From: Candidatus Moranbacteria bacterium GW2011_GWC2_40_12
GTDB taxonomy: Bacteria; Patescibacteriota; Minisyncoccia; Moranbacterales; UBA11712
NCBI GenBank assembly: GCA_000995965.1
Contig: LBYD01000001.1
Coordinates: 76,923-140,922 of the forward strand
DNA length: 64,000 nucleotides
Direction of reading: 5' to 3'
The translations under genes and the position numbers were made by a program. Under the pieces are notes generated by a model, which had not been told where the DNA came from, searched no databases, and worked only from the letters and a program-made list of their open reading frames with translations. Numbering within the stretch: the stretch's first letter is position 1; every line of letters begins with the position of its first letter. Below, one piece after another: positions 5,926 through 37,712 of the stretch.

Positions 5926-5970
5926 TTTGTTTGATTTAATTCGATTGGAATTGGCTTGGTTATTCAAAAT

Positions 5971-6004
5971 AAAAAAGGCCCGATGCTTTATCGGGTCTTT
6001 TTTG
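5971..6004. terminator. Bidirectional rho-independent terminator (GGCCCGAT...ATCGGGTC, A-run upstream and T-run downstream) between convergent genes
   Basis: aaaaaaGGCCCGATgctttATCGGGTCtttttt read from sequence. Confidence 0.6.
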
Positions 6005-6005
6005 A

Positions 6006-6938
6006 CTATTTGTTATTGTTTTTCTGAAACCACTCGTATGTTTTCCTAATTCCCGTTTTGAAGTCGGTTTTTGGCGTCCATCTAAAATTCTCTTTTATTT
6101 TCGCGTAGGAAAGGCAGCTGGTTTTTTGCTCGCCGATTTTGGCTGGTCCGTGAACTTCTTTGAATTTTTTTCCGAAATACTTGTTTATTTCTCGGAATAT
6201 GCCGTTTACACTCGTTTCTTTGCCGGTGCTGGCATTATATATTCCTACTTTGTCGAATTTTTCAAGCGCCTGCAGATTTGCCGAAGTTATATCGTCAATG
6301 AAAATGAAGTCCCTCGTTTGTTTTCCACTTCCGTTGATTACGGGTTGCTTTCCATTCATCATCATGTGGAGAAAAATCGCAATTACATTTACTTCTCCAT
6401 GGGGGTTTTGCCGCGGTCCATACACATTCGGATAGCGAAGAGCGGCAAATTTCAGCCCGTGGACCTTGTTGGCATAATGCAAGAATTTTTCAACGGAAAG
6501 CTTTCCAACTCCGTAGGGAGAGACGGGCCAAGGCTCGACGGTTTCCGGAGTGGGGAGGACGCGCGTGTCGCCGTAGAGGGCACCGCCGGTTGACGAAAAT
6601 ATGAATTTTTTGACTTTGTATCGGCAGGCGAGTTCAATAAGATTCATGCTTGCCAAAATATTATTATTCCCTTCGAAAAGGGGATCGGCGACGGATTTTC
6701 GAAGGTCTATTTGCGCCGCGAGATGGAAAATGACCTCCGGTTTTTCTTTTTTGACGGTAGCTTCAGTTTTTTTGTGATTGGTGAGGTCAGCTTTGAAAAA
6801 TTTTGCCTCGGGATTGATATTTTTCTCAAATCCGGTGGAAAGATTATCAATCACCAAAACCCGATGCTTCTTTTCAACAAGAGCATCGACCAGATGCGAA
6901 CCAATGAATCCCGCGCCTCCCGTGACCAAGATTTTCAT
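6006..6938 (-). CDS. NAD-dependent nucleotide-sugar epimerase/dehydratase (extended SDR, GalE/UDP-xylose synthase-like)
   Basis: VTGGAGFIGSHL Rossmann motif and YxxxK (SPYGVGK) catalytic motif; 310 aa. Confidence 0.8.
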   Translation of the reverse strand: MKILVTGGAGFIGSHLVDALVEKKHRVLVIDNLSTGFEKNINPEAKFFKADLTNHKKTEATVKKEKPEVIFHLAAQIDLRKSVADPLFEGNNNILASMNLIELACRYKVKKFIFSSTGGALYGDTRVLPTPETVEPWPVSPYGVGKLSVEKFLHYANKVHGLKFAALRYPNVYGPRQNPHGEVNVIAIFLHMMMNGKQPVINGSGKQTRDFIFIDDITSANLQALEKFDKVGIYNASTGKETSVNGIFREINKYFGKKFKEVHGPAKIGEQKTSCLSYAKIKENFRWTPKTDFKTGIRKTYEWFQKNNNK

Positions 6939-6989
6939 AGTGTTTTTTCCAAAGCTAAGCTTTCGGATTTTCCTAAAGCTCAGCTTTTT

Positions 6990-8582
6990 TTATTTTATCT
7001 TCCAAATGATTGAAATGGTTTTCGACTCGATATTTTGCGCGAGACCCCATTTTTTTTCAGACGGTTCCAGAAAATTGTTATCTATTTCAATTACATCGAA
7101 AGTCCTGCTTTTGACCAGATCGGTATACCAAGTTTTTTCTTCAGCGACGGGTCCCAGGATAAAGATGTTCTCATAGCCATTCTGGTCGATGTATTTCAGG
7201 TCATCTGCGTTAAAAAAATAGACGGCTTTTTTGCCAAAAAGAGATGTCATGGGATCGCTAAGAAGCGAGAATCCGCTGCCAGTGGCCATTCGATCGACCA
7301 AAATCAGATCATTCGGGCCGAATTTTTCGGCTATTTTTTCAATTTGGGGCAAAAGATCTCTATTTTCCGAAAGAGTGAGAAAGCGCCAGCTCACGACGAC
7401 GTTTGCCGTGATAAGGGCCGCAAGGGTGATATAGAGAAATATTTTGTGATAGAAAAACCGGTTGAGAAAATATATCGAGTAAAAAATCAGGATTGGAAAA
7501 ACGGCAAAAACGAACCGGCGCAGCATCCACGGGTCATCAAGAGAAATCATCGGTGAAATAAGATAGAAAAAAGCCGGAAAAGTGAGGAGTATTGGAATAT
7601 ATTCCGGCTTTAGCCAGTTTTTTTTCACTTTTTTTGCGAGCCAGCCGATTCCAGCGAGACCAAGAATGAGATAAGCCAAAATGTTATAGCTCAAAAACAC
7701 AGTCGCGAGATGCGAATACAGGCCAGATGAGGGTGCGGAATCTTTGGTTGAGTCGGGCAGAAAAGCTTTTGTGAAATTTTTGGCGCTGTCAGTCAGATCA
7801 TGATAATTCAGAAAAATATAGAGGGCAGAGAGCAACAATGTGGAAATTAGCAGATATTTTATGAAATTTTTTGAAAGCGGGATTGTATTTTTTCTGTTAA
7901 GGAAATAAATATAGCCGGCGGCAAGGAGATAAAAAACTATTCCCTCGATTCTGGTGAGCGCCGAAAGAGCGAAAAAGAGCAAAGAAATTTGCAGAAAGCG
8001 GTTATCCATATTTTTAGACGTTGGACGTCTAAAAGAAAGCAGAAAATAAATTCCCGCCCAGACGAGAAAAAGCATGAAGATTTCCGTGAGCGCGTATTTG
8101 GCAAACCAAGGGAAAGGAAAAAAAGTCGCGGCGATGAGAAACCCGAGAAGGGAAACTTTCTCGGAAAAAAACTGGCGAAGTGCGAGCCAAAATAATACCA
8201 GAAACAAAGCCAGGTGGAGGAAGTTGGCATACTGGATTCCCTTCAATCCCAACGCGGCATAAAAAACGGCCAGATAGGCGATAAAAGCTTTTGGGAAGCG
8301 GGTTATCAGCTTTCCATCCTTGGTATAGTCAAAACCGGGGAAGTTGAGGGCTCTGCCTTGCCCGTATTTTTGAAATAAGTCGTTTGATGAGGGAGCGGAG
8401 AAAACAAATGATTTGTGTTTTACGAGATCGATCGCGGCGGTTGCGATGGCGCCCTGATCTCGCCCCCCGAAAACAGTTGGAGTCGCGAAATAGCAAGTCG
8501 TGAAAGAAATAGCAAGAGAAATTGCGATGACTACGAGAAAATAATTCCTGTTTCCCTTTTTTTTGGGAGATTGGTGTTCCAT
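6990..8582 (-). CDS. Polytopic membrane protein, putative GT-C-fold glycosyltransferase (PMT/ArnT-like) with C-terminal extracytoplasmic domain
   Basis: At least 10 predicted TM helices followed by soluble C-terminal domain. Start moved to ATG 8582 (MEHQSPKKKG) because table ORF upstream part lacks coding character. Adjacent to polyprenyl-phosphate GT2. Confidence 0.5.
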   Translation of the reverse strand: MEHQSPKKKGNRNYFLVVIAISLAISFTTCYFATPTVFGGRDQGAIATAAIDLVKHKSFVFSAPSSNDLFQKYGQGRALNFPGFDYTKDGKLITRFPKAFIAYLAVFYAALGLKGIQYANFLHLALFLVLFWLALRQFFSEKVSLLGFLIAATFFPFPWFAKYALTEIFMLFLVWAGIYFLLSFRRPTSKNMDNRFLQISLLFFALSALTRIEGIVFYLLAAGYIYFLNRKNTIPLSKNFIKYLLISTLLLSALYIFLNYHDLTDSAKNFTKAFLPDSTKDSAPSSGLYSHLATVFLSYNILAYLILGLAGIGWLAKKVKKNWLKPEYIPILLTFPAFFYLISPMISLDDPWMLRRFVFAVFPILIFYSIYFLNRFFYHKIFLYITLAALITANVVVSWRFLTLSENRDLLPQIEKIAEKFGPNDLILVDRMATGSGFSLLSDPMTSLFGKKAVYFFNADDLKYIDQNGYENIFILGPVAEEKTWYTDLVKSRTFDVIEIDNNFLEPSEKKWGLAQNIESKTISIIWKIK

Positions 8583-8676
8583 TGTATTTCTTATTGACAA
8601 AAGTATAGTAATGTTATAGAATATAGTTTCAAAATTAACAAAAAAACAATAAATGAAAAGGGAGGCAGGCCGGTCA

Positions 8677-9111
8677 ATGAAAATAAAATATTCAATGAAA
8701 AGTTTGAAAAAGTTTCTGGCCAACGCTTTTTCCGGGGGAAATCCGGAAAAAATCCTCGAGGATGTCCATTGCGAGCTCACCCGGAGAAATTTCGCGGTTG
8801 AGAGGTATGAGGACGTTTCCGGGATGGGGATTCGGGGCAGTTTGGACATCTACCCATCGGTTCAGGTCAATGTCTATATTCCCTTCACTTCCGCGTGGGA
8901 GCTGCAGGCGCTTCTCTTCTTCGAGGAGGATGACCAGCTCGAATTGGTGAGCCAGGTCCCCGATTTCAAGGAAAAAATCCTTTTGAGGCGCTATTCCCTG
9001 CCAATTAATCCCCGGGAAATCGCCAGAGCTTTGAGCACGGACGCCCTGCTTCTTGGCGCATTGCTGGCAACTATTCTCAAGCGCCAGGAAATTGAGGCAC
9101 GGCATGAATAG
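8677..9111 (+). CDS. Hypothetical protein (coding status uncertain; an equally long ORF exists on the opposite strand)
   Basis: GC-richer divergent intergenic region between two glycosylation genes; acidic/helical composition plausible, no recognisable motif. Confidence 0.3.
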   Translation: MKIKYSMKSLKKFLANAFSGGNPEKILEDVHCELTRRNFAVERYEDVSGMGIRGSLDIYPSVQVNVYIPFTSAWELQALLFFEEDDQLELVSQVPDFKEKILLRRYSLPINPREIARALSTDALLLGALLATILKRQEIEARHE

Positions 9112-9149
9112 GGAGCGGGGCGGAGCGCCATTGGCGTCTTTGCCCCCCA

Positions 9150-9177
9150 ATTTTCAATCAACATTTTTTGCTATAAT
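9150..9177 (+). promoter_or_regulatory. Candidate extended -10 promoter (TGCTATAAT) about 25 nt upstream of the GT2 gene start
   Basis: ttttttGcTATAATcc read from sequence. Confidence 0.35.
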
Positions 9178-9202
9178 CCTGACTTTACGTTAACATAAAT
9201 AC

Positions 9203-10150
9203 ATGAATGAATCCAGTCAGAAACCATATATATCCGTGATTGTTCCGCTTTATGACGAAGAGGGGAATGTGAGAGAATTGCACCAGAAAATAGTCGAAGC
9301 CTGCCGGGGACTTGGCAAGACTCTCGAAATTATTTTCATCGACGATGGAAGCACGGACAAGACGAATGAAATTTGCCGCGCATTGAGCCCCCTGAAGCTC
9401 ATCACCTTTCGAAAAAATTTCGGGCAGACAGCCGCCTTTGACGCGGGGATCAAAAATTCTTCGGGCGAAATCATTATCACAATGGACGGCGATCTTCAGA
9501 ATGATCCGGCGGACATCAAGCTGCTATTGGATAAATTAAGCGAAGGATACGACGTTGTTGCCGGCTGGCGGAAAAATAGGCAGGATTCCTTTATGAAGAA
9601 TCTTGCCTCGCGCGCGGCCAATATTGCCCGAAAATTTCTCATCAACGACGGAATTCATGACAGCGGGTGCAGTCTCAAGGCTTTCAAAAGGGAATGTTTT
9701 GACGATCTGGATTTGTATGGCGAGATGCACCGCTTTATCCCGGCACTCCTCAAGGTGCAGGGGTTCAAAGTGGCGGAAGTTCCAGTCAGCCATCATTCGC
9801 GCAAGAGCGGGGTGACGAAATACAACTGGAAGCGGGGAGTAAAGGGAATCGTTGATATGATCTCGGTCTGGTTCTGGAAAAAATACGCCAATCGGCCTTT
9901 GCATCTTTTTGGAGCGGGGGGTCTTGGGATATTTTTCCTGGGAATTTTGTCGGGAGCGGCGCTGGTCACGGCGCGCGTTTTCTATGCCGTCCCGATGTCG
10001 AACAAAATCTGGCCGCTCATCGCTGTTTTCCTGGTCCTGATGGGAATCCAACTCTTCATTTTCGGTCTTCTGGCTGATATCGCGGTCAAGAATTATTATA
10101 AAACGCAGGGGAAGATGAATTATAAAATAAGAGAGATTATCGAGAATTAA
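9203..10150 (+). CDS. GT2 polyprenyl-phosphate sugar synthase (DPM1/ArnC/GtrB-like) with C-terminal two-TM anchor
   Basis: ISVIVPLYDE, FIDDGSTD, TMDGDLQND (DxD) motifs; C-terminal hydrophobic helices typical of GtrB/ArnC. Confidence 0.8.
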   Translation: MNESSQKPYISVIVPLYDEEGNVRELHQKIVEACRGLGKTLEIIFIDDGSTDKTNEICRALSPLKLITFRKNFGQTAAFDAGIKNSSGEIIITMDGDLQNDPADIKLLLDKLSEGYDVVAGWRKNRQDSFMKNLASRAANIARKFLINDGIHDSGCSLKAFKRECFDDLDLYGEMHRFIPALLKVQGFKVAEVPVSHHSRKSGVTKYNWKRGVKGIVDMISVWFWKKYANRPLHLFGAGGLGIFFLGILSGAALVTARVFYAVPMSNKIWPLIAVFLVLMGIQLFIFGLLADIAVKNYYKTQGKMNYKIREIIEN

Positions 10151-11334
10151 TGAAAATTCTCACCATCGCCGCGACGCCTTTTTTTTCTGACCGGGGCGCT
10201 CATATGCGGATACTTAACGAAGCGAAATATCTCAAAAAATTGGGCGCCGAGGTGCGCCTTTGCGCTTATCATATTGGGGAAAATGTGCCGGGACTTGATA
10301 TCGAGCGTATCAAGGGCCCGAATAGCTACAAAAAAACATCTCCCGGTTTTTCCTGGGGAAAAATATGGCTGGACTGGAAACTCCTTTTTTTGGTTCGGCG
10401 GGAAATTAAAACATTTCAACCCGACGCGATCCACGCGCATCTTTGGGAGGGACTGGCTATCGGATATTTGGCGAAAAAATTGGCTTTTTGCGGAAAAATT
10501 CCGATAGTATTTGATTTGCAGGGGAATATCGATGAGGAATTTCAAAGTTACAGCCGAAAAAAATCAATCGCGCGGAAATTCTTTGTTTGGTTTTCAAAGA
10601 GAGTTATCAATTGGGCCGATAAAATTGTTGTCAGCAGTGAGAATGTCAAACTTCATCGTAGCGGTTTAATCGCTACGATCGTGCGGGATGGGATTGATTT
10701 GGATTTATTTCAAAATCTGCAAGACTTATCTAAAGTAGAATCGGATAAAATCGATAAAATTAAAAAGTGGGCTGGAGATAGTAAATTGCTGGTCTATATC
10801 GGAGGTTTGAGCGATAATAAGGGAGTCGGGGAGCTTTTGGAAGTTTTTGGAAAACTTGGCTTTGAGAAATTCCCCGACGAAAAGTCGGGGAAGGAAAAAG
10901 CCGAGCTTTGGGAAAAGAATAATTGGAAACTTCTATTGGGCGGATTTGGAAGTGACGAGGAAAAATACAAAAAATATATTACTGAAAAAAAACTGGAAAA
11001 ATCCGTGTATTTTGCCGGAAAAATTCCGTATTTTTCTTTGGCGCGCTATCTGGCATTGGCGGACGCTGGAATCGATCCCAAGAGCGGTTCGACCGAATCG
11101 AGCGGAAAGATAGCCAATCTTATGGCGGCGGGACTGCCAATAATTTGCTTCGGCACCAAATTTAATCGGGCGAGATTGGGCGAAAAGGGAATTTATTTGA
11201 AAAATATGAATGAATTGGCCGAAAAAATGAATACTTTTCAGGATACGGGAAAAATAGAATATGACATTGAAAATTTTAGCGAGGAAAAAGAAGCTCGGAA
11301 ATTGCTTGAAATTTTCCTATTACTTGTCAAATGA
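10150..11334 (+). CDS. GT4-family glycosyltransferase
   Basis: GT-B architecture, 394 aa, start overlaps previous stop (ATGA). Confidence 0.65.
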   Translation: MKILTIAATPFFSDRGAHMRILNEAKYLKKLGAEVRLCAYHIGENVPGLDIERIKGPNSYKKTSPGFSWGKIWLDWKLLFLVRREIKTFQPDAIHAHLWEGLAIGYLAKKLAFCGKIPIVFDLQGNIDEEFQSYSRKKSIARKFFVWFSKRVINWADKIVVSSENVKLHRSGLIATIVRDGIDLDLFQNLQDLSKVESDKIDKIKKWAGDSKLLVYIGGLSDNKGVGELLEVFGKLGFEKFPDEKSGKEKAELWEKNNWKLLLGGFGSDEEKYKKYITEKKLEKSVYFAGKIPYFSLARYLALADAGIDPKSGSTESSGKIANLMAAGLPIICFGTKFNRARLGEKGIYLKNMNELAEKMNTFQDTGKIEYDIENFSEEKEARKLLEIFLLLVK

Positions 11335-12518
11335 AAACACTTCTCATAAAAACCGGAAAAGCGCTGAACGCCTTGAAGCAAGAAGGGCTGGTCCGCGGCG
11401 GAAAAAGGGTGGCAAAATCTTTTATAGCGCAATTTGGCCGGGTGCGGCCGGGGGATATTTTGTTTGTGACGCCGGGAGTGGGAGACAGCGCGATGTTTCG
11501 AGCGCATAACCAGGCTGAAGAGATGCGCCTTCATGAGTTCAAATGCAGTGTGACGATTCAGGATAATCCTTTTTTGCCGCGCTACGCGGATAAATTCAAA
11601 ATTTTCATTTTCCATCGGCCGGTTTGGACGAAAAATGTCGCAAAACTTTTTGAAAACGCCAAAAAACTTGGAAAGGAAATTATTTTCGAAACAGACGACC
11701 TGGTTTTCGACCCGAAACATGTTCAGGCGACGGAGCATTACAAAAAAATGAATATTTTTGAGCGTAAGCAATATGAAAAGGGAGCAGGAGAGGAGATCCT
11801 GAGGGATACGTATGTCAAGGCCTGCGCGACAACAACAAGCTTTCTCGCGAAAATTTTGGAAAAATACGGCAAAAAAGTCTTCATCTCGAAAAATAAGCTG
11901 TCGCTCAAAGATCTTGAAATCGCAGAAAATCTCTTGACGAAGGCTAAGCCTTCGTCAGATAATATTGGCTTGAGAATAGGATATTTTTCCGGAACCAAAG
12001 GGCATGATAAGAATTTTGCGACGATAGAAAATGCCCTGGTCAGGATTCTCGAAAAATACCCCGATATAAAATTATTTTTAGCCGGTCCGCTCAACATCAG
12101 TGAAAAATTCGGGAAGTTTCAAAGCCGGATCGAAAAATTTCCATTTGCGTTGCGCGAGGAGCACTTCAAAAATATCTCTGGAGTTGATATCAACATTATT
12201 CCTCTGGAAAAAAACAATGATTTTTGTGAGGCGAAATCGGAACTCAAATTTTTTGAAGCTGGGATTTTGGGAGTGCCCTCGGTGGCGGTAGACAATCAGA
12301 CTTATCGAGACGCGATTGATGATGGCGTTGACAGCTTTTTGGCCGGGAGTGAAAATGAGTGGGAAGAAAAAATTGAAAGGCTGATAGTTGACGGAGATCT
12401 TCGAAAAAATATGGGAAAAGAAGCGAGAGAAAAAACTATCCGCGAATATACGACAAAAAATAGCCACAGCAGCGAATATTATGATTATCTGCGGCTGAAA
12501 TTGAAAATGCAAAAGTAA
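11331..12518 (+). CDS. GT4-like (RfaG-like) glycosyltransferase
   Basis: GT-B fold C-terminal domain (GTKGHDKNF ... FLAGPL ... E.K..FFEAGI); 4-bp overlap with upstream gene. Confidence 0.6.
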   Translation: MKTLLIKTGKALNALKQEGLVRGGKRVAKSFIAQFGRVRPGDILFVTPGVGDSAMFRAHNQAEEMRLHEFKCSVTIQDNPFLPRYADKFKIFIFHRPVWTKNVAKLFENAKKLGKEIIFETDDLVFDPKHVQATEHYKKMNIFERKQYEKGAGEEILRDTYVKACATTTSFLAKILEKYGKKVFISKNKLSLKDLEIAENLLTKAKPSSDNIGLRIGYFSGTKGHDKNFATIENALVRILEKYPDIKLFLAGPLNISEKFGKFQSRIEKFPFALREEHFKNISGVDINIIPLEKNNDFCEAKSELKFFEAGILGVPSVAVDNQTYRDAIDDGVDSFLAGSENEWEEKIERLIVDGDLRKNMGKEAREKTIREYTTKNSHSSEYYDYLRLKLKMQK

Positions 12519-12610
12519 AAATTGTTATTTTTCGAATAGTCTGTCTTCGCACGAATGTGCGGACAAACGCGATACCTGCTTAATCGCCTTACACTTTTCA
12601 GATCAGATTT

Positions 12611-13606
12611 ATGGAAAATACCGCCATTGTCATTGTCAACTGGAACGGAAAGAAGTATCTCAAGGACTGCTTCGATTCGCTCCAAAAACAAACCTATGAA
12701 AATTTCAGGGTTATTTTTGTGGACAACGGGTCAACAGACGATTCAGTCAATTTTGTAAAAAATAACTACTTGGAAACTAAGTTTCCAAGTGTAAAAATAG
12801 TTCGATTAGAAAGGAATACCGGTTTCTGTTTTGGATATAACGTGGGCATCAAGTCGGCGCTTGAAGATCCTAAGATAAAATACGTAATTGTTCTCAATAA
12901 TGACACCAGACTGGATGAAAAATACGTCGAAGAATTGGCAAGATGCGCGAAAAAATATCCGGGTACAGGTTCCGTCCAGCCGAAAGTTTTGAATTTTTTT
13001 GAAAGGGAAAAAATTGATTGCGCCGGAATTTATATCACTCGCGACGGGACGGCCCATAACAGGGGATACGGAAGAGATGCAAGAAGATATAGTGAAGAAA
13101 AAGAAATTTTCGGCGCGAACGGGACAGCCTCGCTTTTTACCCGGGAGGCGCTTGAGAAAACAGCCCTTCTGGAGCATAATTATTTCGACAATGACCATTT
13201 TGTTTTCTATGAAGACGTGGATCTGGCCTGGCGGATGAAAAACGCGGGATTTAAGTCGTATTTTTGCCCGCAGGCGGTCGTATATCACGTCCACAGCGGA
13301 ACTGCCGGAAAAGGTTCGCTGATGAAAGCATATTATCTCCACCGAAACTATTTCTTCACTGTCATAAAAAATTATCCTTTTGGAAAAATGGCAAAAACGT
13401 TTTTTTGGCGATTTTTCAGCTATCTGAAGCTGGTCGCGAATATATTCAATAAAAAGAAACGGGAGACGGAATTCGTAAAAGGGCGGAGCAAAGCTGAAGT
13501 CGCCCTTGTGATTCTCAAGGCATGGGGGAGCGTCTTATGCAATTTATCGAGAATGATGAGAAAAAGAATGTTTATCAGAAAAAAGATTCATGAAAATCAA
13601 ATTTGA
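12611..13606 (+). CDS. GT2 glycosyltransferase (rhamnosyltransferase-like)
   Basis: AIVIVNWNG, FVDNGSTDDS, DxD region. Confidence 0.75.
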   Translation: MENTAIVIVNWNGKKYLKDCFDSLQKQTYENFRVIFVDNGSTDDSVNFVKNNYLETKFPSVKIVRLERNTGFCFGYNVGIKSALEDPKIKYVIVLNNDTRLDEKYVEELARCAKKYPGTGSVQPKVLNFFEREKIDCAGIYITRDGTAHNRGYGRDARRYSEEKEIFGANGTASLFTREALEKTALLEHNYFDNDHFVFYEDVDLAWRMKNAGFKSYFCPQAVVYHVHSGTAGKGSLMKAYYLHRNYFFTVIKNYPFGKMAKTFFWRFFSYLKLVANIFNKKKRETEFVKGRSKAEVALVILKAWGSVLCNLSRMMRKRMFIRKKIHENQI

Positions 13607-15248
13607 CTGGAAAATAGTTTTGTTTTCGCTTGTCATCGCCCTCGCAATTTTTCTTCGCGTTTGGCATTTTTCGGACTGGCTTTTTTTCAAAATGGACCAG
13701 GCGCGGGATGCGTCAATTATAAAACAGGCCTTTGAGCTGGGCCCTGGCTGGCTTCCGCTTCTCGGTCCCAAAGCCGGCGGAACGGACCTGAACCTCGGGC
13801 CGGCCTTTTACTATTTCCAATATTTGGCGGCATCGCTTTTCCAAAGCGTCCATCCGGCAGTGCTGGCTTTTCCTGACCTCTTATTCGGAATACTTTCCAT
13901 ACCGCTTTTCTTCATATTTGCCAAAAAATATTTTTCCCGAAACTGGTCAATGATTCTGGCAAGCCTTTTTGCCGTTTCCTTTCTGGGAATCCAATATTCG
14001 CGTTTTTCCTGGAATCCAAACGGGCTCGTATTTTTCAATCTTCTGTTTTTTCTGTCGCTTCTAAATGTATTTGATAAAAATATAAAATACCATCTTCGCT
14101 GGGTGATTCTCGCCGGGATTTCCTTTGCAGTTTCGACCCAGCTTCACTTCCTTTCTTTTCTTACTTTGCCGGTGATTGCGGCGATATTTATAATATTCAA
14201 TTGGAAAGAGTCGAGAAAGGCGCTAAATTGGAGATACGTACTCTTTTTTTTGGCTATCATTCTTCTTATATATCTGCCGGTGATTCTGAATGAAATTGTT
14301 TCCAAGGGGGAAAATACCCATCAATTCATGTTGGCGCTCAAAGAAAAGCCGTCGGAGCACAGTTTTTGGAAAAACATAAAACGAGATATCCGCTATTGGG
14401 GTCAGAATTGGTTTTTGATTCTCACCAGTTGGATCAGCCGCAAGGGCGGAATAAACGGCGCGATTTTGTCATGGCTCGGCGCGATTTTTCCGGCCATTTA
14501 TCTCGGATACAAATCTTTTCGACGGGAGGAAAACGCCGTAAAGAAGAATTTTGTGCTGATTTCGCTTCTCTGGTTTTCTATATATTTTCTCGCTTATATC
14601 CCGATTGCCTATCAAATCCGGCCAAGATTTTTCCTGCCGCTTCTGGTGCTGCCTTTTATTTTCATCGGATATTTGGCGGTGTTTTTTTGGGAAAAAAAGC
14701 ATAAATTTTGGAAAATTTGCGTCTCTGCGGCCATTCTTTTGATTTTTTTGGGGAATTTGACCGGGACCTATTTTTGGTTTGAGGAAATAAGATCAGCCCA
14801 AAAAAAGGGGACTTACCCTTGGCGGACAATCATTCTAAAGGCCAAGGACGGAGTTGTGCTTTGGCACTTGGAGAAGGCGGCAAATTATATGAAAGAAAAT
14901 TGCCAGGCGAAGATAATATATTTTGACGCCCCTTCCGAATATAAAAGGCCGGTAAAATATTTGTTGAATCTGCGGGGAACAGAAGCCGCTTCGATTGAGA
15001 ATCTCAAAACAGGAGAACAAAAACAGTGTGTTTTCTCTTTGGGATTAACTCGGGCGAAAAAATTGTCCACGAGAGAGAAACTGGAAGCCGAATTCGATGT
15101 TGGCGAACAGCAAAAAATCGGCGCGCTGAGTGTCTATAAGCTTTCCCTCAAAGAAAATATTTCAGGCCAAACCTTGCCGTCTTACAAAGCAGGTGCGGAA
15201 GAGAATGAGAAATCGAATCGTATTTTTTGGAAAGATTTGTGGAAATAA
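13590..15248 (+). CDS. GT-C membrane glycosyltransferase (GT39/ArnT/PMT-like, 4-amino-4-deoxy-L-arabinose transferase-like family)
   Basis: N-terminal TM then loop motif FFKMDQARD (DE-containing first loop typical of GT-C), 11-13 TM helices, C-terminal soluble domain. Confidence 0.6.
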   Translation: MKIKFDWKIVLFSLVIALAIFLRVWHFSDWLFFKMDQARDASIIKQAFELGPGWLPLLGPKAGGTDLNLGPAFYYFQYLAASLFQSVHPAVLAFPDLLFGILSIPLFFIFAKKYFSRNWSMILASLFAVSFLGIQYSRFSWNPNGLVFFNLLFFLSLLNVFDKNIKYHLRWVILAGISFAVSTQLHFLSFLTLPVIAAIFIIFNWKESRKALNWRYVLFFLAIILLIYLPVILNEIVSKGENTHQFMLALKEKPSEHSFWKNIKRDIRYWGQNWFLILTSWISRKGGINGAILSWLGAIFPAIYLGYKSFRREENAVKKNFVLISLLWFSIYFLAYIPIAYQIRPRFFLPLLVLPFIFIGYLAVFFWEKKHKFWKICVSAAILLIFLGNLTGTYFWFEEIRSAQKKGTYPWRTIILKAKDGVVLWHLEKAANYMKENCQAKIIYFDAPSEYKRPVKYLLNLRGTEAASIENLKTGEQKQCVFSLGLTRAKKLSTREKLEAEFDVGEQQKIGALSVYKLSLKENISGQTLPSYKAGAEENEKSNRIFWKDLWK

Positions 15249-15314
15249 AACGGATTTTGATGTAAAATTAATCAGCCTGGATTCAAGTCTGGAAATTTTG
15301 AATTCTTGTTTTTT

Positions 15315-16043
15315 ATGAAAAATAAAGCAATTTCAGTTGTCATTCCCTGTTACAACGAGGAAAAGACAATCCAAAAAAATTTGTTGAAGGTTCACAATTA
15401 TCTCAAGGACCGTTTTGGGGTTTTCGAGATAATTGTCGTAAACGATGGCAGCAATGACGGGACGCTCAAGGAAATAAAAAAAATGGAGGACGATCTGCAT
15501 CTTCGCATAATTGATAATCAGGAAAATAAAGGAAAAGGCAAAGTTGTCAAGCAGGGGATTTTGGAGAGTTCCTGTGATCTTGTTATGTTTTTGGATGCTG
15601 ATCTGGGAATTCCCATAGAAGAGCTTCAAAAGTTTGTGCCTGAATTTGATCGCGGATATGATATCATTATTGCCTCAAGATTTGTTCCCGGTCTTCGCGT
15701 CATAAGGCCGGTTCTTTGGCACCGGCAGACCATGGAAAAAATTTTTCGTTTGCTCCGGTTGGCGATAATATGTGACCGGAACGTCAAGGATACGCAGTGC
15801 GGATTCAAGGTTTTTCAGAGGAAGGCAGCTATGGATATTTTTTCCCGAGTGACGGTCGGAAGGTTTGCTTTTGACGCAGAGGTAATCTTCATTGCCAATA
15901 AATTGAAATATAAAATCAAAGAGCTTCCTATTTCGCTTCAAAATCCGCCTAACAGCCATATCAGACTTTTTCGCGATCCCCTGAATATGGCGCTGGACCT
16001 GCTCAAAATCCGCTTGAATGCCTGGAGGGGAAAATACAAATAA
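15315..16043 (+). CDS. GT2 polyprenyl-phosphate sugar synthase (dolichyl-phosphate mannose synthase-like)
   Basis: ISVVIPCYNEE, VVNDGSNDGT, FLDADL (DxD), QCGFKVF. Confidence 0.75.
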   Translation: MKNKAISVVIPCYNEEKTIQKNLLKVHNYLKDRFGVFEIIVVNDGSNDGTLKEIKKMEDDLHLRIIDNQENKGKGKVVKQGILESSCDLVMFLDADLGIPIEELQKFVPEFDRGYDIIIASRFVPGLRVIRPVLWHRQTMEKIFRLLRLAIICDRNVKDTQCGFKVFQRKAAMDIFSRVTVGRFAFDAEVIFIANKLKYKIKELPISLQNPPNSHIRLFRDPLNMALDLLKIRLNAWRGKYK

Positions 16044-18281
16044 ATGACGAAGGGAAAAAATCAAATGAAAAAACTCTGGAGCAACGAAAAAATCAGAATT
16101 ATTTTCTTCTACGCGCTTTTGACGGTAATTTTAACCTGGCCCTTTGCCTGGAATTTTTTCTCTTCTGTTCCGAGTCTTGGATCTGATACGATGCAGGTGA
16201 TCGGTGTAGCCGGGGAAAGAATGAATGTTCTCAAAGATCTGGGTGTTTTCAAAGGATCTGTTGAGCTTATGAAGCGATCGGAATTCAATATAGTCACTCT
16301 TTATGCCTTTTTTCAGCTCATTTTCGGCCGGATTGCCGGATATAATCTACTATTTTTCGCATCGTTTGTCCTTTCTGGTTTTGGAATGTATCTTCTTGCC
16401 TATTATTTCACCAAAAGCAAGCCGGCCTCGCTCATTGCCGGAATTATTTTCGCTTTTTTGCCGTTCCATGTCCACAATTCTTTGAGCACCAATGTTGGAA
16501 CAATGCATCAGGAGTGGCTGCCGTTTTTTGCGTTGTATCTTTTCCGGTTTTTCGATAATCTCAAGGCGAAAAACTTTCTATTGGCCGGTCTTTTTCTGGG
16601 ACTGATTGCCTTTACCGAACACCAACTTTTTGCTTTCACACTTATTTTTGTGTCTTTTTTTGTCGTATTCAAAATTTTCACCCAGCCGAGGATATTTCTC
16701 AAAAGAAAATTCTGGCTGTATGCAGTTGTCAGTTTCGTGGTCCTTTCGGCTGTTTCTCTTTTTATGTTCCGTTCACTTTTTGAGATCGCTTTTTCGGGCA
16801 ATAACTATCTTGATCCCGGATTCAAAGCGGCCGTGAAATATTCAAATGACGCCCTGAGTGTTTTCGTTCCGCCGAATTTCCATTCCTTTTGGCCCGGAGC
16901 CTTTTCGGGCTTGCGGGAAACATTCGAGCGGCGGACAGACAGCTCATTTTCGGCTTATGTCGGATTTCTGGTTCTTCTCTTGTCTGCCGCCGCATTTTTC
17001 AGGGACAGAGTATCCAAGAAATGGTTTTGGCTGGCGGTGGCAATCGGTTTTTATGTCCTTTCGCTCGGTCCGCATCTGCATTTCAAAGGAGAACTAGACC
17101 CGCCAGTCAAAATGCCATATCTTCTCGCCTATGAATATCTGCCGTTTTTCAACAACATTCGGACAGTTGGCAGATTGTTTGTGTTTTCGGCAGTGGCATT
17201 TTCGGTTTTGGCGGCGTGGGGAAGCGCGTATGTGATATTAAAAATAAGAAATAAAAGGGAAGAAATAAAAAATGAATTATTAAACGGCGATATCTCAAAA
17301 AGCGAACAAGTCGATATTTTTGGATCTAATCGCGGGCAAAAAATTTTATTTTTTGCGGTCAGCGCAGTTATCATTCTTGAATTTCTCGCAATTCCTGTCA
17401 AAACAAACTCACTCTTGCACTCCTCATTTTATGAAAAACTCGGCCAGGAAAAAGAAGATTATAACATTCTGGAGGTTCCCGGGAGCACGGATTATGACTT
17501 TGCCTCGCGCGATTTGGTTTGGAAGAGCATCCATCGAAAAAACACTATCAATGGTTATGATTTTGCCCGGGTGATTGACGATCACTACACATTTCAACGC
17601 GGAACCCCTGTCATTCGGACGCTGCTTTATGATATTCCGGAAGGGAACGAGAAACAAAATGACCGTGACATCATGAAGGATTCATATTACAAAATTTCAA
17701 ATGAAATCTTGAATTATTATAATATCCGATACGTTGTCTTGGACAAAGAGGGCCTCAAGGGAAATCCGGAAAAGGGAGACGCGGACCAGTTTTATTCCGC
17801 AAGGGCATACGCGCAAAATGTCTTGAAATGCAAAAGTGAATTCGAGGATGACTTTTTATTCGCTTGCGAGGTGAGCCGGGACGCCGCACCAAGGCATATG
17901 TTTGTGGCAATGGACTATTCCAACAAGCATTGGGTTGGAAAAGACAAAGGAAAAGACGGAATCCGGCGCTGGGCCGAGTCCGGTGCGGGAGTGAAAATTG
18001 TGAACATGTCGCCGGAGCCCCAAGAGGGAAAATTTAATTTTAAAGTAAAACTATATAAGCCGATACGGGTGATTGCGCTTCTGAACGGCGCGCCTGTTTT
18101 CGACAAATATATCACTCAATTTTCTGAAAAAACATACGTATCGGTTGATATTTCCGGCATAAAGTCCGGAGAAAATGAAATTATTTTTGAAGTCCGCGCC
18201 GCAAACGGTTTGGAAATTCGCTCTGAAAAAAAGTCAGACGTAGCGACGATATATGACGTGGAAGTGGAAGCGAAGAAATAG
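16044..18281 (+). CDS. Large polytopic membrane protein with C-terminal extracytoplasmic domain (putative GT-C/YfhO-like glycosyltransferase)
   Basis: 745 aa, about 12 TM helices in first 420 aa then soluble domain; immediately downstream of Dpm1-like GT2. No exact family assignable without a search. Confidence 0.45.
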   Translation: MTKGKNQMKKLWSNEKIRIIFFYALLTVILTWPFAWNFFSSVPSLGSDTMQVIGVAGERMNVLKDLGVFKGSVELMKRSEFNIVTLYAFFQLIFGRIAGYNLLFFASFVLSGFGMYLLAYYFTKSKPASLIAGIIFAFLPFHVHNSLSTNVGTMHQEWLPFFALYLFRFFDNLKAKNFLLAGLFLGLIAFTEHQLFAFTLIFVSFFVVFKIFTQPRIFLKRKFWLYAVVSFVVLSAVSLFMFRSLFEIAFSGNNYLDPGFKAAVKYSNDALSVFVPPNFHSFWPGAFSGLRETFERRTDSSFSAYVGFLVLLLSAAAFFRDRVSKKWFWLAVAIGFYVLSLGPHLHFKGELDPPVKMPYLLAYEYLPFFNNIRTVGRLFVFSAVAFSVLAAWGSAYVILKIRNKREEIKNELLNGDISKSEQVDIFGSNRGQKILFFAVSAVIILEFLAIPVKTNSLLHSSFYEKLGQEKEDYNILEVPGSTDYDFASRDLVWKSIHRKNTINGYDFARVIDDHYTFQRGTPVIRTLLYDIPEGNEKQNDRDIMKDSYYKISNEILNYYNIRYVVLDKEGLKGNPEKGDADQFYSARAYAQNVLKCKSEFEDDFLFACEVSRDAAPRHMFVAMDYSNKHWVGKDKGKDGIRRWAESGAGVKIVNMSPEPQEGKFNFKVKLYKPIRVIALLNGAPVFDKYITQFSEKTYVSVDISGIKSGENEIIFEVRAANGLEIRSEKKSDVATIYDVEVEAKK

Positions 18282-18317
18282 CTTGAAAATTGGGTGAGAA
18301 AATGCTATACTTTATTC

Positions 18318-18863
18318 ATGCAAAAGCGCTTGTTTGTTGCAATAAGCCTTCCCGAGGATATAAGAAAGCGCCTGTTTCGGTTTGCCGAAAAAGAATACAA
18401 AAACTTGCCCGTAAAGTGGATCCGGCAGGAAAATATTCATCTGACGCTGAACTTTTTGGGATACATCCTGGATGAAAATGTCTTGGATATCTGCCAGTCC
18501 GTTCAAAATGCCGCTGAAAATATCAACTCTTTTGAGATGCGATTTACTGGCGCAGAATTGGGGCCAAACAGCAAGTCAAAAAAAATGATCTGGGTAACGG
18601 GAGAGAAAAGCAGAGAACTTTCGAAGCTCAAAAATGAATTGGACAAGTCATTGGGATTTTTCGAGAGAGAAATGAAAGATTTCAAGCCTCATATTACGAT
18701 TGGAAGAGTCCGGAAAAAGGAGTGGAAAAAAATCCATCCCGAGCCTTCGGTGGACAGGAACTTCAGGTTTTCAATTCCGGTTTCATCGGTTGAAATTTTT
18801 GAAAGCAGATTTGAAAAGGGAAAAAGAGTTTATTATAAATTGGAATCGTTTTCGCTAAGGTGA
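18318..18863 (+). CDS. thpR: RNA 2',3'-cyclic phosphodiesterase (2H phosphoesterase, LigT/ThpR family)
   Basis: Two H-x-T/S-x motifs: HLTLNFLG and HITIGR; about 180 aa. Confidence 0.75.
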   Translation: MQKRLFVAISLPEDIRKRLFRFAEKEYKNLPVKWIRQENIHLTLNFLGYILDENVLDICQSVQNAAENINSFEMRFTGAELGPNSKSKKMIWVTGEKSRELSKLKNELDKSLGFFEREMKDFKPHITIGRVRKKEWKKIHPEPSVDRNFRFSIPVSSVEIFESRFEKGKRVYYKLESFSLR

Positions 18864-18881
18864 AAATGCGAATTATCCCGA

Positions 18882-19619
18882 ATGCAAAAAAGAATGAGCG
18901 CGACAGCAAAATTATTAGGCATGAAGATTAGCAATCTTTCAGCGGCTGAAATAAACGATTGGATAAAAATTATCCTGAGTAATCCGCCTGAACAGCGATT
19001 CGTGGTTTCGCTCAATCCGGAAATCATTCTGAAGGGGCATTGCGACGAAGGTTATAAAAAAATACTAAGCAGCGCCGATTTGGCGCTTTGCGACGGATTC
19101 GGAGTGAAGTGCGCGGCTTGGCTCAAGGGCGAAAAAATTAAAACAAGGTACACCGGAGTTGATCTGGTCGAACGCTCTCTGAAATTGGCAAAAGAAAACA
19201 ATATCAGCGCGCTGGTTGTTGTTTCGAAAAACAGTCTGAGCAGTCCCGAAGAGATAGAGAAGGGGATAAGAGACAAATATGATTTCGGGGCGCGGGCAAA
19301 ATATTGGGATGACGAAAGGTTTTTTGAATGCGAAGACGCGAAGAAAGCAGAAATAGTTTTTGTGAATTTTGGCGCTCCCCATCAGGAAAAATTCATTTTT
19401 GAAAATAAAAGGAATTTTCCGAAAGCAAAATTTTTGGCGGGAGTGGGAGGGACGTTTGATTTTCTCACAGGAAAAATCAGGCGGGCTCCACAGTGGATGA
19501 GAAAGGCGGGTCTGGAATGGTTTTGGCGAATGCTCCAGGAGCCCAAGAGACTAAAGCGCATTATAAATGCAGTCGTTGTGTTTCCTTGGGTTGTTCTAAT
19601 AAATAAAAAAAATAAATGA
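18882..19619 (+). CDS. WecB/TagA/CpsF family (GT26) N-acetylmannosaminyl-type transferase
   Basis: C-terminal GLEWFWRMLQEPKRLKR signature; 245 aa. Confidence 0.8.
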   Translation: MQKRMSATAKLLGMKISNLSAAEINDWIKIILSNPPEQRFVVSLNPEIILKGHCDEGYKKILSSADLALCDGFGVKCAAWLKGEKIKTRYTGVDLVERSLKLAKENNISALVVVSKNSLSSPEEIEKGIRDKYDFGARAKYWDDERFFECEDAKKAEIVFVNFGAPHQEKFIFENKRNFPKAKFLAGVGGTFDFLTGKIRRAPQWMRKAGLEWFWRMLQEPKRLKRIINAVVVFPWVVLINKKNK

Positions 19620-20137
19620 CGAGACAGAGAATATTTTCATTATCCATTTCCACGTTCCTTTGCATAATTTTGGGTTTTTTTGTGATGAGAGGAGGCGTCG
19701 ATTGGGATGAAAAACTGGCTTATTTTTTGCATACCGCCTTATTTGTATATTTTTTGGCGGTTCTCATCTCTAATCAGCAGTATGAGGAAGATACAATGGC
19801 CAAAATCGAAAGGATTTTCAGCTCGGCGCTCGTTTCTTTCACTTTTTTTTTCCAGATGATATATGCTCCGATGGCCCGATATTTTTTTGGAAATATGATC
19901 CATAAGGCGGCTTTTTTTTCCGACACCCTGGCGCTTTTCCTGTTTCTTTTTTTCGCTTTCATATTTGTTATAGCGGCGGCGGCGGCGAGCAGTTTTTCGA
20001 GCACCGGATTCCTCTCCGGCTGGAAATTTTTCAACAATCCAACAGCCTATTTCGTCCTTCGCAATCTCTGGCTGGCAGCTGTTTTGATGGCGGTTTTCCT
20101 GTATTGGAAAAATCCTTTCCTAATTATAACAGTCTGA
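19616..20137 (+). CDS. Hypothetical integral membrane protein
   Basis: Five hydrophobic helices; no motif recognised. Confidence 0.45.
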   Translation: MTRQRIFSLSISTFLCIILGFFVMRGGVDWDEKLAYFLHTALFVYFLAVLISNQQYEEDTMAKIERIFSSALVSFTFFFQMIYAPMARYFFGNMIHKAAFFSDTLALFLFLFFAFIFVIAAAAASSFSSTGFLSGWKFFNNPTAYFVLRNLWLAAVLMAVFLYWKNPFLIITV

Positions 20138-32301: not shown

Positions 32302-33360
32302 CTACTGGAAAATATTTCGGCATACTTCTCGAATCTTCTCATAATTTCCTCCGGTTGGCAAAAGCACGTAGGTTTTTCCTTCTGGCGTATCGGCGCGGGT
32401 CGAATAAAGCAATCCTTCATCTGATGTGTCGAATACTTTTTGGCTTATTTGCGGGTTCTGCGTCGTATTTGCCAGATTGAAAAACTTTTTCATTTCCGAA
32501 ATATCCATATCAGTGCGGACGTCTTCTCCGAGAACATTGAGGATATTGTTCACTTTTCCGAAATCGGCAAGTGTTCCGAGGCTCATCAGCTTATCCTTGA
32601 GGGCAAGCAAAACCTGCTGCTGCCGCCGAGCCCGTTCAAAGTCCGAAGAAGCGTATCGGGCACGGACAAAAAACAGGGCCTTTGAACCGTCGATGTGGTT
32701 TTTTCCGGATGGTAATGTGAAATTGAGTGCGTTTTCTCCTTCAAATTGAGTCGGCTCGGAAAAAGGGCTGTCAAGGTAGATATCAACTCCTCCGACCGTG
32801 TCAACCAACTCCTTAAAGCCGTTAAAATCTATCCGGACAGCGTAATGGATAGGAATGCCCGTTATGTCGCCGACAATTTGCTTCATGGCCTCCATGCCTT
32901 TTCCCTCTCCTTTTTCCTCATAAAGGGCATGGACAGAGTTGATTTTTCCTTGATTTGAGGTTCCGGGATAGTTTACCCAAATATCGCGGGGAATGGACAC
33001 AATCGCAACTTTGTTTTCTTTCGGCCTTGCCATCACTACCATGATGGAATCAGCCAAAAGTCCTCCGCCGAGCATGTTGTTTCCTCGCATGCCAAGCAGA
33101 AGGATATTGATTTGGCCCTCTTCTTCTCCCTGAAGCTGGTCAGAACCAATGCCCGGAATTGATTTCCAAAGCGATTTTATAAACCCGTCCCTGGTTGAAA
33201 TTTTGCTTAGGGTCGTTCCGGTCCGATACATCGCATATCCGCCAGTCGCGATCAAAAGAAGAAGAATGACCGCCAAAATCCTAAACCATCTTTTTTTCCA
33301 GAATCTTTTTTTTCTTGGCTTCGTGATTCCGTCTTCGTGTCTTGATCCGAAAATTCCCAT
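32302..33360 (-). CDS. LytR-CpsA-Psr (LCP) family phosphotransferase with N-terminal TM anchor
   Basis: NILLLGMRGNN ... DSIMVVMARPKENKVAIVSIPRDIWV LCP core; 352 aa. Confidence 0.8.
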   Translation of the reverse strand: MGIFGSRHEDGITKPRKKRFWKKRWFRILAVILLLLIATGGYAMYRTGTTLSKISTRDGFIKSLWKSIPGIGSDQLQGEEEGQINILLLGMRGNNMLGGGLLADSIMVVMARPKENKVAIVSIPRDIWVNYPGTSNQGKINSVHALYEEKGEGKGMEAMKQIVGDITGIPIHYAVRIDFNGFKELVDTVGGVDIYLDSPFSEPTQFEGENALNFTLPSGKNHIDGSKALFFVRARYASSDFERARRQQQVLLALKDKLMSLGTLADFGKVNNILNVLGEDVRTDMDISEMKKFFNLANTTQNPQISQKVFDTSDEGLLYSTRADTPEGKTYVLLPTGGNYEKIREVCRNIFQ

Positions 33361-37686: not shown

Positions 37687-37712
37687 CGAATTTAGAACGA
37701 ATTAAAACGAAT
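37687..37712 (-). repeat. Three ACGAAT repeats (10-bp period) upstream of GT4 start, overlapping stop of ligase gene
   Basis: cgcgaatttagaacgaattaaaacgaatc read from sequence. Confidence 0.5.

Follow-up and report, generated by a model that had tools for sequence, protein, structure and literature searches.

The subject of this study is a glycan-assembly locus at positions 6006-19619 of a 64,000-nucleotide stretch of DNA (hereafter the window) from Candidatus Moranbacteria bacterium GW2011_GWC2_40_12, a member of the Patescibacteria, or Candidate Phyla Radiation (CPR). We conclude that three large membrane proteins encoded there are GT-C glycosyltransferases and not transporters, and that the locus probably serves to load sugars onto lipid carriers inside the cell, from which the three membrane enzymes would move them to a polymer or protein outside. 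As judged from the list of open reading frames (ORFs) and from Pfam and NCBIfam matches, 10 of the 12 genes at this locus encode glycan enzymes. The membrane proteins, M1 (6990..8582, minus strand, 530 amino acids), M2 (13590..15248, plus strand, 552 amino acids) and M3 (16044..18281, plus strand, 745 amino acids), are accompanied by two candidate polyprenyl-phosphate sugar synthases, GT2a (9203..10150, plus strand) and GT2c (15315..16043, plus strand, 242 amino acids); by two cytoplasmic GT-B glycosyltransferases, GT4a (10150..11334, plus strand; Pfam Glyco_transf_4 and Glycos_transf_1) and GT4b (11331..12518, plus strand; Pfam Glycos_transf_1); by a soluble GT2 without membrane helix, GT2b (12611..13606, plus strand; Pfam Glycos_transf_2, 3.8e-23); and by an epimerase and a TagA/WecG-type transferase.

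Three membrane glycosyltransferases of the GT-C superfamily

Because sequence and profile searches of the PDB returned nothing for the membrane proteins, we compared the folds of predicted models. This comparison supported a GT-C fold with a polytopic N-terminal membrane module for M1 and M3. The best fold matches of the M1 model were the protein O-mannosyltransferases Pmt2 and Pmt4, with PglB and STT3B also among the top matches. AftD was the second-best match of the M3 model, the C-terminal part of which resembles carbohydrate-binding modules (CBMs); in addition to its membrane module, M3 is predicted to have an alpha/beta domain outside the cytoplasm and a CBM-like beta-sandwich at its C-terminus. 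The family of M2 is of the PMT_2 type, with 28 of the 48 homologues matching PMT_2 and 13 of the 48 matching PMT; a database protein identical to M2 is annotated with PF13231, and the M2 and M1 families aligned with one another at an hhalign probability of 93.9%. All three families are remotely related to one another, and CPR genomes contain between one and seven paralogues of M2.

A preliminary description of this DNA had taken the three proteins for GT-C-type enzymes and had labelled M2 as GT39/ArnT-like. The general assignment stands, since we found neither transporters nor proteins devoid of a GT-C loop. The label of M2 holds as far as the GT-C class but no further: PF02366 (PMT, GT39) was not matched by M1, M2 or M3 even at E-values of up to 5, and ArnT (5F15/5EZM in the PDB) was not found by phmmer or profile searches with any of them. 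M2 is therefore not demonstrably a GT39 enzyme or an ArnT, and the likeness of all three proteins to ArnT is at the level of the fold only.

In each protein a conserved aspartate is located 9-13 residues past the first membrane helix, behind a K/R-rich N-terminus from which we infer that the first loop is extracytoplasmic. We take this position to be that of the catalytic acid in GT-C enzymes. D42 of M1 (GGRDQG motif) is invariant in all 49 sequences, as are D36 and D40 of M2 (MDQARDA), together with R39, in all 48; D48 of M3 is kept in 82 of 83 sequences, which come from Moranbacteria, other CPR bacteria, Methanosarcinales, Chloroflexota and Thaumarchaeota. In the models, the first loop helix begins at D42 in M1 and at D48 in M3. 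The conserved acidic residue in the first loop that had been anticipated was found as an aspartate in all three proteins; M2 has D36-Q37 at the site where the DE motif of GT39 enzymes would be looked for. M3 also has two arginines, R373 and R377, that are 100% conserved and could bind phosphate. Together with the co-location of two GT2 genes resembling those of polyprenyl-phosphate glycosyltransferases, these arginines indirectly hint at a lipid-phosphate-linked sugar as the putative donor of the GT-C enzymes.

The named families that come closest to M1 and M3 are themselves uncharacterised. M1, which belongs to an uncharacterised Patescibacteria family, aligned with the NCBIfam model of the putative glycosyltransferases LA_3751/LA_3752 of Leptospira over 415 residues (7e-17), at 61 bits against a cut-off of 200. 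In precomputed annotation many M3 homologues, some of them 62-78% identical to M3, carry DUF6311 (PF19830), and one distant match carries YfhO (PF09586), but our Pfam scan reported neither for M3, which we call DUF6311-type, or for any member of its alignment (A1). The M1 family is modest in size: among 1.84 billion representatives it accounts for 309 clusters at 50% identity (E-values up to 1e-30). Full-length GT-Cs of the M3 family occur in methanogenic archaea (Methanosarcinales, L037-L060) and in Anaerolineae and ammonia-oxidising archaea (Chloroflexota and Thaumarchaeota, L061-L089) at 24-31% identity; D48, R373 and R377 are kept in the archaeal and Chloroflexota relatives, and some Anaerolineae loci (L071, L081) have three or four M3-family copies in tandem.

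Two sugar synthase candidates and conserved gene partnerships

The preliminary description had recognised two polyprenyl-phosphate GT2 genes and, indeed, both GT2a and GT2c matched polyprenyl-phosphate glycosyltransferases best among solved structures. In phmmer searches of PDB structures, residues 9-313 of GT2a aligned with residues 9-314 of ArnC (6e-46), and GT2a also matched GtrB sll0501 of Synechocystis (27-326; 4e-26) and the dolichyl-phosphate-mannose synthase (DPMS) of Pyrococcus furiosus (1e-19). This full-length similarity to solved members, and two C-terminal membrane helices at 241-259 and 272-290, place GT2a among the membrane-anchored synthases of the ArnC/GtrB/PgfS/CsbB type. Its NCBIfam scores were 169 bits against a cut-off of 529 for ArnC (NF007986, 1.2e-49) and 143.7 against 500 for PgfS (NF047588, 7e-42), so that it belongs to the same class as these enzymes but is not the same enzyme.

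GT2c is a candidate synthase of the DPMS/PpgS/GacI type. Its best PDB match was P. furiosus DPMS (1.2e-18), followed by ArnC and GtrB (about 1e-13), over residues 4-180 only. Near full-length NCBIfam alignments, all under cut-off, were obtained with dolichyl-phosphate hexose transferase (9.9e-15), PpgS (1.4e-10) and AglJ, the first two extending to about residue 211-213. GT2c has no membrane helix, and neither has GacI, a synthase of the class to which GT2c may belong (PMC8035078). PpgS and Ppm1/D2 are further synthases of this class without membrane helices, and all three act with small membrane partners. Because GT2a and GT2c match one another at an E-value of only about 5e-13, two different lipid-linked sugars are plausible.

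Each of the two synthases had been paired with a GT-C enzyme in the preliminary description, and conserved gene order upholds one of these pairs. Of the 16 Moranbacteria loci that include upstream sequence, 15 (all except L025) have GT2c directly in front of M3, stop codon to start codon. In Methanosarcinales, a GT2a-like gene (36-44% identity) is found 1.5-5 kb upstream of full-length M3 homologues (26-31%) in 19 of 23 loci. In more distant CPR genomes the M3 homologue belongs to an array in which the PMT_2-type paralogues number three to seven; some of these arrays also include a single GT2a-like gene, a Metallophos gene and a flippase gene of the Wzx type. Given this synteny in Moranbacteria, CPR bacteria and Methanosarcinales, the link between the M3 family and polyprenyl-phosphate GT2 enzymes holds across domains. 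GT2c probably feeds M3, and perhaps M2 too.

The other pair, GT2a and M1, proved to be specific to the Moranbacteria. There, GT2a is the immediate, divergent neighbour of M1 in all 26 loci that include upstream sequence; twelve of these loci have, after GT2a, a PMT-type GT-C of its own and a GtrA-type protein, both of which are missing from the window. Distant Patescibacteria, whose M1 homologues are 34-41% identical, were represented by 45 loci, of which 32 have GT4a and/or GT4b divergent from M1, in many cases with the epimerase alongside, and only two contain a GT2a-like gene. In these distant loci GT4b (47-58% identical) is more conserved than M1; GT4a is 33-37% identical, and the epimerase, a neighbour of the GT4 genes at many loci of M1, 25-36%. 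The stable partners of M1 are thus GT4a and GT4b and, less constantly, the epimerase, and the adjacency of GT2a is lineage-specific. It is likely that M1 acts with the products of GT4a and GT4b. In distant M1 loci (L007, L008 and about 40 metagenome loci, L125-L169) the genes that come after the M1 homologue encode a conserved extracytoplasmic protein of 444 amino acids with a single membrane pass (43 loci) and a 133-amino-acid protein with four membrane helices (19 loci); neither has a Pfam match, and both are absent from the window.

Proposed route of the sugars, their acceptor and alternatives

In the mechanism that we propose, TagA, GT4a, GT4b and GT2b would assemble a glycan on polyprenol-diphosphate in the cytoplasm (the two GT4s alternatively on a glycolipid), with the epimerase providing a sugar nucleotide. 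In parallel, GT2a and GT2c would each load one monosaccharide onto polyprenyl phosphate, and the lipid-linked sugars would be flipped across the membrane, either by a Wzx-type protein encoded at 48034-49530 or by a small candidate protein, TM4. At the outer face M1, M2 and M3 would transfer the sugars, each by means of its conserved first-loop aspartate, to an acceptor. A glycopolymer, linked to the wall or anchored by a lipid, is the most probable acceptor; surface proteins are less probable. The TagA/WecG-type transferase (18882..19619, plus strand; Pfam Glyco_tran_WecG, 1.3e-39; NCBIfam TarA, 2.8e-32) is a member of the WecG/TagA/CpsF family (PF03808, 136 bits against a cut-off of 27.4; TIGR00696, 109 against 69), scoring below the TarA equivalog cut-off (112 against 350), and its predicted product is a linkage unit of the ManNAc-GlcNAc-PP-polyprenol type. 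GT2b, which matched an NCBIfam rhamnosyltransferase subfamily (1.9e-16) and GlfT1 (1.2e-8), probably extends the lipid-diphosphate-linked glycan in the cytoplasm. The epimerase (6006..6938, minus strand), an NAD-dependent sugar-nucleotide epimerase of the GalE-like short-chain dehydrogenase/reductase type, matched Pfam Epimerase at 2.8e-58 and NCBIfam GalE at 1.5e-59, under the equivalog cut-off.

For the flipping step the window offers two candidates. The Wzx/MurJ-type flippase gene (48034..49530, plus strand; Pfam Polysacc_synt_3, 1.8e-22, and MurJ, 4e-14), which may be compared with GacK, adjoins genes for Tmk (thymidylate kinase) and RtcB, and the same trio abuts GT-C arrays in other CPR genomes. 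TM4 (19616..20137, plus strand) is a 173-amino-acid protein with four hydrophobic segments taken as membrane helices; its homologues occur in 15 Moranbacteria loci, after TagA wherever the locus is long enough. A role for TM4 as a flippase of the GtrA type was rejected (hhalign probability of 0.1% against a GtrA alignment, no Pfam match), and it could, by analogy with GacJ and Rv3632, be the small membrane partner of GT2c instead. Metallophos phosphoesterase genes recur inside the GT-C arrays of CPR bacteria (L001, L003, L006), and one is also present in the window at 1307-2275. UpsH, a metallophosphoesterase of Bacillus subtilis, acts on polymers that are trapped on undecaprenyl diphosphate and thereby releases undecaprenyl phosphate (PMC11898649); by analogy, these Metallophos genes might serve in lipid-carrier recycling.

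As to the acceptor, a wall glycopolymer or lipoglycan seems to us more likely than protein, given that TagA is part of the operon, GT4a, GT4b and GT2b are cytoplasmic, Wzy-like, LytR-CpsA-Psr (LCP) and Wzx-type genes are nearby, and M3 combines a CBM-like domain with likeness to AftD. The genes for the LCP ligase and the Wzy_C protein are located, with more GT4 genes, 12-25 kb downstream. CBM-type domains on GT-Cs have been proposed to bind acceptor polymers (PMC8035078). Scores from the fold comparison do not discriminate between acceptors. Protein O-mannosylation, one of the systems to which the preliminary description had likened its gene pairs, is just one possibility, and the context described above favours a glycopolymer.

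Several observations weigh against the proposed mechanism. M1, M2 and M3 all score below Pfam gathering thresholds (with weak PMT_2 matches for M1 and M3 and a weak TMEM260-like match for M2), and their searches of PDB sequences gave nothing even with profiles of 45-49 homologues; the putative catalytic role of the conserved aspartates derives from their position only. There is no GtrA-type flippase in the window, as judged from Pfam GtrA and from a hidden Markov model built from 12 Moranbacteria GtrA homologues; relatives such as L009 encode a GtrA-family protein. The deep linkage of M1 to GT4a and GT4b, and not to a polyprenyl-phosphate GT2, weakens the assignment of its donor, and GT2c, being under every NCBIfam cut-off, could conceivably be an ordinary cytoplasmic GT2. 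Genes for surface proteins adjoin this locus (5176-5925) and some related ones, an arrangement with which protein glycosylation would agree just as well, and in a recent study of Saccharibacteria, glycosylation in these bacteria was termed 'unexplored'.

Protein O-glycosylation would have the three GT-Cs move the lipid-linked sugars of GT2a and GT2c to serine or threonine residues of proteins that are secreted or anchored in the membrane (pilins, S-layer proteins, adhesins and the like), as in the actinobacterial Ppm1/Pmt, streptococcal Pgf (PgfS/PgfE/PgfM1/PgfM2) and GtrB/PgtC2 systems. An epimerase, a GT-C and a PgfS-like GT2 (7e-42) are clustered here as in the pgf operon, Pmt2 and Pmt4 head the fold matches of M1, homologues of M2 match Pfam PMT, and the glycosylation of pilins has been predicted in Saccharibacteria. 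A secreted protein with Ser/Thr/Asp-rich repeats is also encoded next door (5176-5925), and related loci are flanked by surface proteins with a CLIPPER domain (L003) or Big_13/TSP3 domains (L009). Yet relatives have no conserved counterpart of the neighbouring repeat protein, scores fall short of the PgfS and PMT family cut-offs, TagA and three cytoplasmic glycosyltransferases in the operon would be superfluous for the mono-glycosylation of proteins, and the CBM-like domain and AftD likeness of M3 point elsewhere. We regard this as a serious alternative, though a rather unlikely one. Somewhat better placed, though still doubtful, is the idea that M1 is independent of a polyprenyl-monophosphate sugar and acts with GT4a, GT4b and the epimerase, GT2a being a later, lineage-specific addition that serves other GT-Cs. 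M1 would then either extend a glycolipid made by the GT4s to a lipoglycan, much as PimA and PimB' are followed by GT-C mannosyltransferases in actinobacterial lipomannan, or transfer or polymerise a lipid-diphosphate-linked oligosaccharide in the manner of PglB/STT3. The divergent GT4 genes in 32 of 45 distant loci, the conservation of GT4b and the scarcity of GT2a-like genes there all agree with it, as does the finding that GT2a has its own PMT-type GT-C and GtrA-type protein in 12 relatives. GT4a weakly matched monoglucosyl-diacylglycerol synthase (6.9e-8) and TuaC, and PglB and STT3B are among the top fold matches of M1. On the other hand, GT2a is the immediate divergent neighbour of M1 in all 26 of the Moranbacteria loci mentioned above, a polyprenyl-phosphate sugar synthase may be encoded elsewhere in the genome, as is common for GT-C systems, and searches of PDB sequences with GT4a and GT4b gave no match, hence no informative relatives by which to narrow their specificity.

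Two further alternatives seem to us less probable still. If GT2c were an ordinary cytoplasmic GT2 acting on a lipid-diphosphate-linked glycan, GT2a would supply a single polyprenyl-phosphate sugar to all three GT-Cs. The lack of a membrane helix fits such a role, and so do NCBIfam scores far under cut-off and the similar scores of PgaC, GpgS and EpsD over the N-terminal half. However, the best solved relatives of GT2c are all polyprenyl-phosphate glycosyltransferases, its near full-length NCBIfam alignments are confined to dolichyl-phosphate hexose transferase, PpgS and AglJ, helix-less synthases are known (PpgS, Ppm1/D2, GacI), and its place immediately before M3 is fixed in 15 of 16 loci. 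We also considered, as a speculation of small probability, that M1, GT4a and GT4b, joined in many loci by the epimerase, form an undescribed Patescibacteria-wide module for a lipid-anchored glycan on the outer side of these ultra-small cells, a module to which distant lineages add the 444-amino-acid single-pass and 133-amino-acid four-helix proteins. The glycan might then be a CPR counterpart of actinobacterial lipomannan or of lipoteichoic acid glycolipid anchors, and M3, in a GT-C family common to Methanosarcinales, Chloroflexota and Thaumarchaeota, would always be fed by a synthase of the ArnC/GtrB type. If this were true, it would mean a class of CPR envelope lipoglycan that nobody has looked for, and a role in host attachment might follow.

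The transfer of lipid-linked sugars that we favour has well-studied counterparts. Multi-component transmembrane glycosylation systems of Gram-positive bacteria include CsbB/GtcA/YfhO (lipoteichoic acid), GtlA/GtlB, GacI/GacJ/GacK/GacL (group A carbohydrate) and GtsA/B/C (Bacillus anthracis), and have two architectures, in which a GT-C is combined either with a membrane-bound GT-A and GtrA or with a cytoplasmic GT-A that is accompanied by a small membrane protein and a Wzx-type flippase; some large GT-Cs bear carbohydrate-binding domains (PMC8035078). Common to these systems and the proposed mechanism is a GT-A (GT2) enzyme that makes a polyprenyl-phosphate monosaccharide and a GT-C that transfers it outside. 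The GT-A types of both architectures are present in the window, GT2a with helices like CsbB and GT2c without like GacI, in a wall-polymer setting with TagA, LCP, Wzy-like and Wzx-type genes. Unlike these systems, the window has three GT-Cs of remote families and two synthases in one operon, and M1 and M3 are not detectably of the YfhO or GacL family by sequence; with no GtrA-family protein, the locus is not a strict three-component system (GT2, GtrA/GtcA and GT-C). The Pgf operon of Streptococcus mutans (PMC12041528) is similar in clustering a GT2 synthase, an epimerase and two GT-Cs, and the match of GT2a to the PgfS model is full-length, but PgfM1 and PgfM2 are YfhO-type, which M1 is not, and the present locus has further genes for TagA, a pair of GT4s and a soluble GT2. 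The assembly of arabinogalactan and lipomannan in Actinobacteria (PMC3485146) uses the GT4s PimA and PimB', the synthases Ppm1 and PpgS and the GT-Cs PimE, MptA/B, AftA-D, EmbA-C and Rv3779; we found no membership of these families at sequence level and no decaprenyl-phospho-arabinose pathway, and the setting here is a Gram-positive-like envelope and a minimal genome. From ArnC/ArnT the locus differs in that GT2a is under the ArnC equivalog cut-off, there are no other arn genes, and the M2 profile finds no ArnT in the PDB; to our knowledge, CPR bacteria have no lipid A. By analogy, the locus may function like CsbB/GtcA/YfhO, GacI/J/K/L, Pgf, ArnC/ArnT and the mycobacterial systems of Ppm1/PpgS plus GT-C, its membership being limited to broad classes, namely the GT-C fold, GtrB/ArnC-type GT2 and WecG/TagA.

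The lifestyle of Patescibacteria is one of attachment to other microbes. Their genomes are very small, yet a large share of the 64-kb window goes to glycan assembly. Our literature searches on GT-C systems or O-mannosylation in CPR bacteria/Patescibacteria found no relevant papers. The logic of the mechanism is well known and no new mechanism is revealed here; the enzyme families and the organism are unstudied. Our analysis places three 'hypothetical' membrane proteins in the GT-C superfamily, names the evolutionarily stable partnerships of GT2c with M3 and of M1 with GT4a/GT4b, and identifies an M3 family common to a CPR bacterium and methanogenic archaea. These genes are concrete candidates for reconstitution and for glycan and glycoprotein analysis of CPR enrichments and co-cultures.

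Gene order and flanking genes

Most plus-strand genes from 9203 onward overlap or lie within 0-20 bases of the next; two gaps are wider (about 65 and 90 bases), and the string, which looks like one long operon, continues into gltX. More than 15 Moranbacteria genomes share all or much of the order GT4a-GT4b-GT2b-M2-GT2c-M3-(ThpR)-TagA-TM4-GltX-C39, with M3 identities of 57-81%. Given the 10 glycan enzymes among 12 genes, the tight spacing on the plus strand and the conserved synteny, the grouping goes beyond chance. M1, M2 and M3 are 100% identical to the hypothetical proteins UX02_C0002G0379, G0373 and G0371 of Candidatus Moranbacteria bacterium GW2011_GWC1_45_18. On the minus strand the epimerase is co-transcribed with M1, in a unit that ends at a bidirectional hairpin terminator (5970-6004). 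The remaining gene with an assigned family at the locus encodes a LigT/ThpR 2H phosphoesterase (18294..18863, plus strand; Pfam LigT_PEase, 1.2e-21), present in L005, L010-14, L021 and L022 and not in L006, L015-19, L024 and L026. The gene string closes, right behind gltX, with a gene for a Peptidase_C39-like protein of 442 amino acids (21675-23003, plus strand), which keeps this place in most of the Moranbacteria loci that extend so far.

With regard to gene content, every ORF named in the preliminary description exists where it was placed, the family assignments were upheld by Pfam and NCBIfam, and the statement that almost all genes have glycosylation functions agrees with our count. The number of thirteen genes required correction to 12, that is, 11 named genes and an overlooked small ORF (8653..9111, plus strand, 152 amino acids) upstream of GT2a. 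Nor can the locus be called an island: GC content is uniform (0.41-0.47), glycan genes run on at both sides, and synteny is conserved across Moranbacteria; a genomic island or horizontal transfer was rejected on the grounds of GC content and synteny.

The small ORF at 8653-9111 is found in only some Moranbacteria. Its product is 71% identical in L091 and 33% identical over the full length in L104 and L111, the opposite-strand ORF being less conserved, and has no Pfam match and no membrane helix. The ORF is preceded by a promoter-like site at 8594-8622 (11 of 12 matches), and an alternative start, ATG at 8677 with a GGGAGG Shine-Dalgarno sequence, would give 144 amino acids. This ORF better explains the conservation of the DNA upstream of M1. 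The reading frame of M1 is open up to 8849, but a start there (619 amino acids) was rejected, since the closest homologues and the NCBI gene model begin at the site that gives 530 amino acids. Many M1 homologues (alignment A2) have a two-helix N-terminal extension of about 60 amino acids, which M1 and its closest relatives lack; the translation of 8583-8849 is unlike it.

Upstream of the locus, the window holds a GT9 heptosyltransferase-like gene (10-1347), the Metallophos phosphoesterase gene (1307-2275), a cytidylyltransferase-like nucleotidyltransferase gene (2276-2761), an HAD/GmhB-like phosphatase gene (2804-3352), a PfkB kinase gene (3398-4435) and an SIS/GmhA-like gene (4550-5125). The last four of these form a set that resembles a nucleotide-activated heptose pathway and is kept next to M1 in many Moranbacteria; in a bacterium without lipopolysaccharide, heptose would suggest a heptose-containing surface glycan. 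The gene at 5176-5925 (plus strand) encodes a secreted or anchored protein of 249 amino acids with an N-terminal membrane helix or signal peptide and Ser/Thr/Asp-rich repeats of about 12 residues (…KI.DG.V…D…SVT..). It has no Pfam match and was present in no fetched locus except the identical contig L090; its product is possibly a glycoprotein substrate or a fibre-like surface protein.

Downstream there are genes for a GT2 (31417-32238), an LCP ligase (32302..33360, minus strand; Pfam LytR_cpsA_psr, 3.2e-36), four GT4s (36528-37679, 39685-40845, 40906-42018 and 44350-45486), a Wzy_C-family polymerase or ligase (37702..39360, minus strand; Pfam Wzy_C, 1.6e-16) and a 627-amino-acid membrane protein with a weak DUF1616 match (42045-43928). 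LCP ligases attach polyprenol-diphosphate-linked polymers to peptidoglycan. An Rfam scan of the whole window found tRNAs only. Between these glycan genes, 33509-36091 (minus strand), the part of the window with the highest GC content (0.497), encodes an RpoD-like sigma-70 factor of 860 amino acids, the sigma domains of which stop near residue 547 and are followed by a C-terminal extension of about 310 amino acids.

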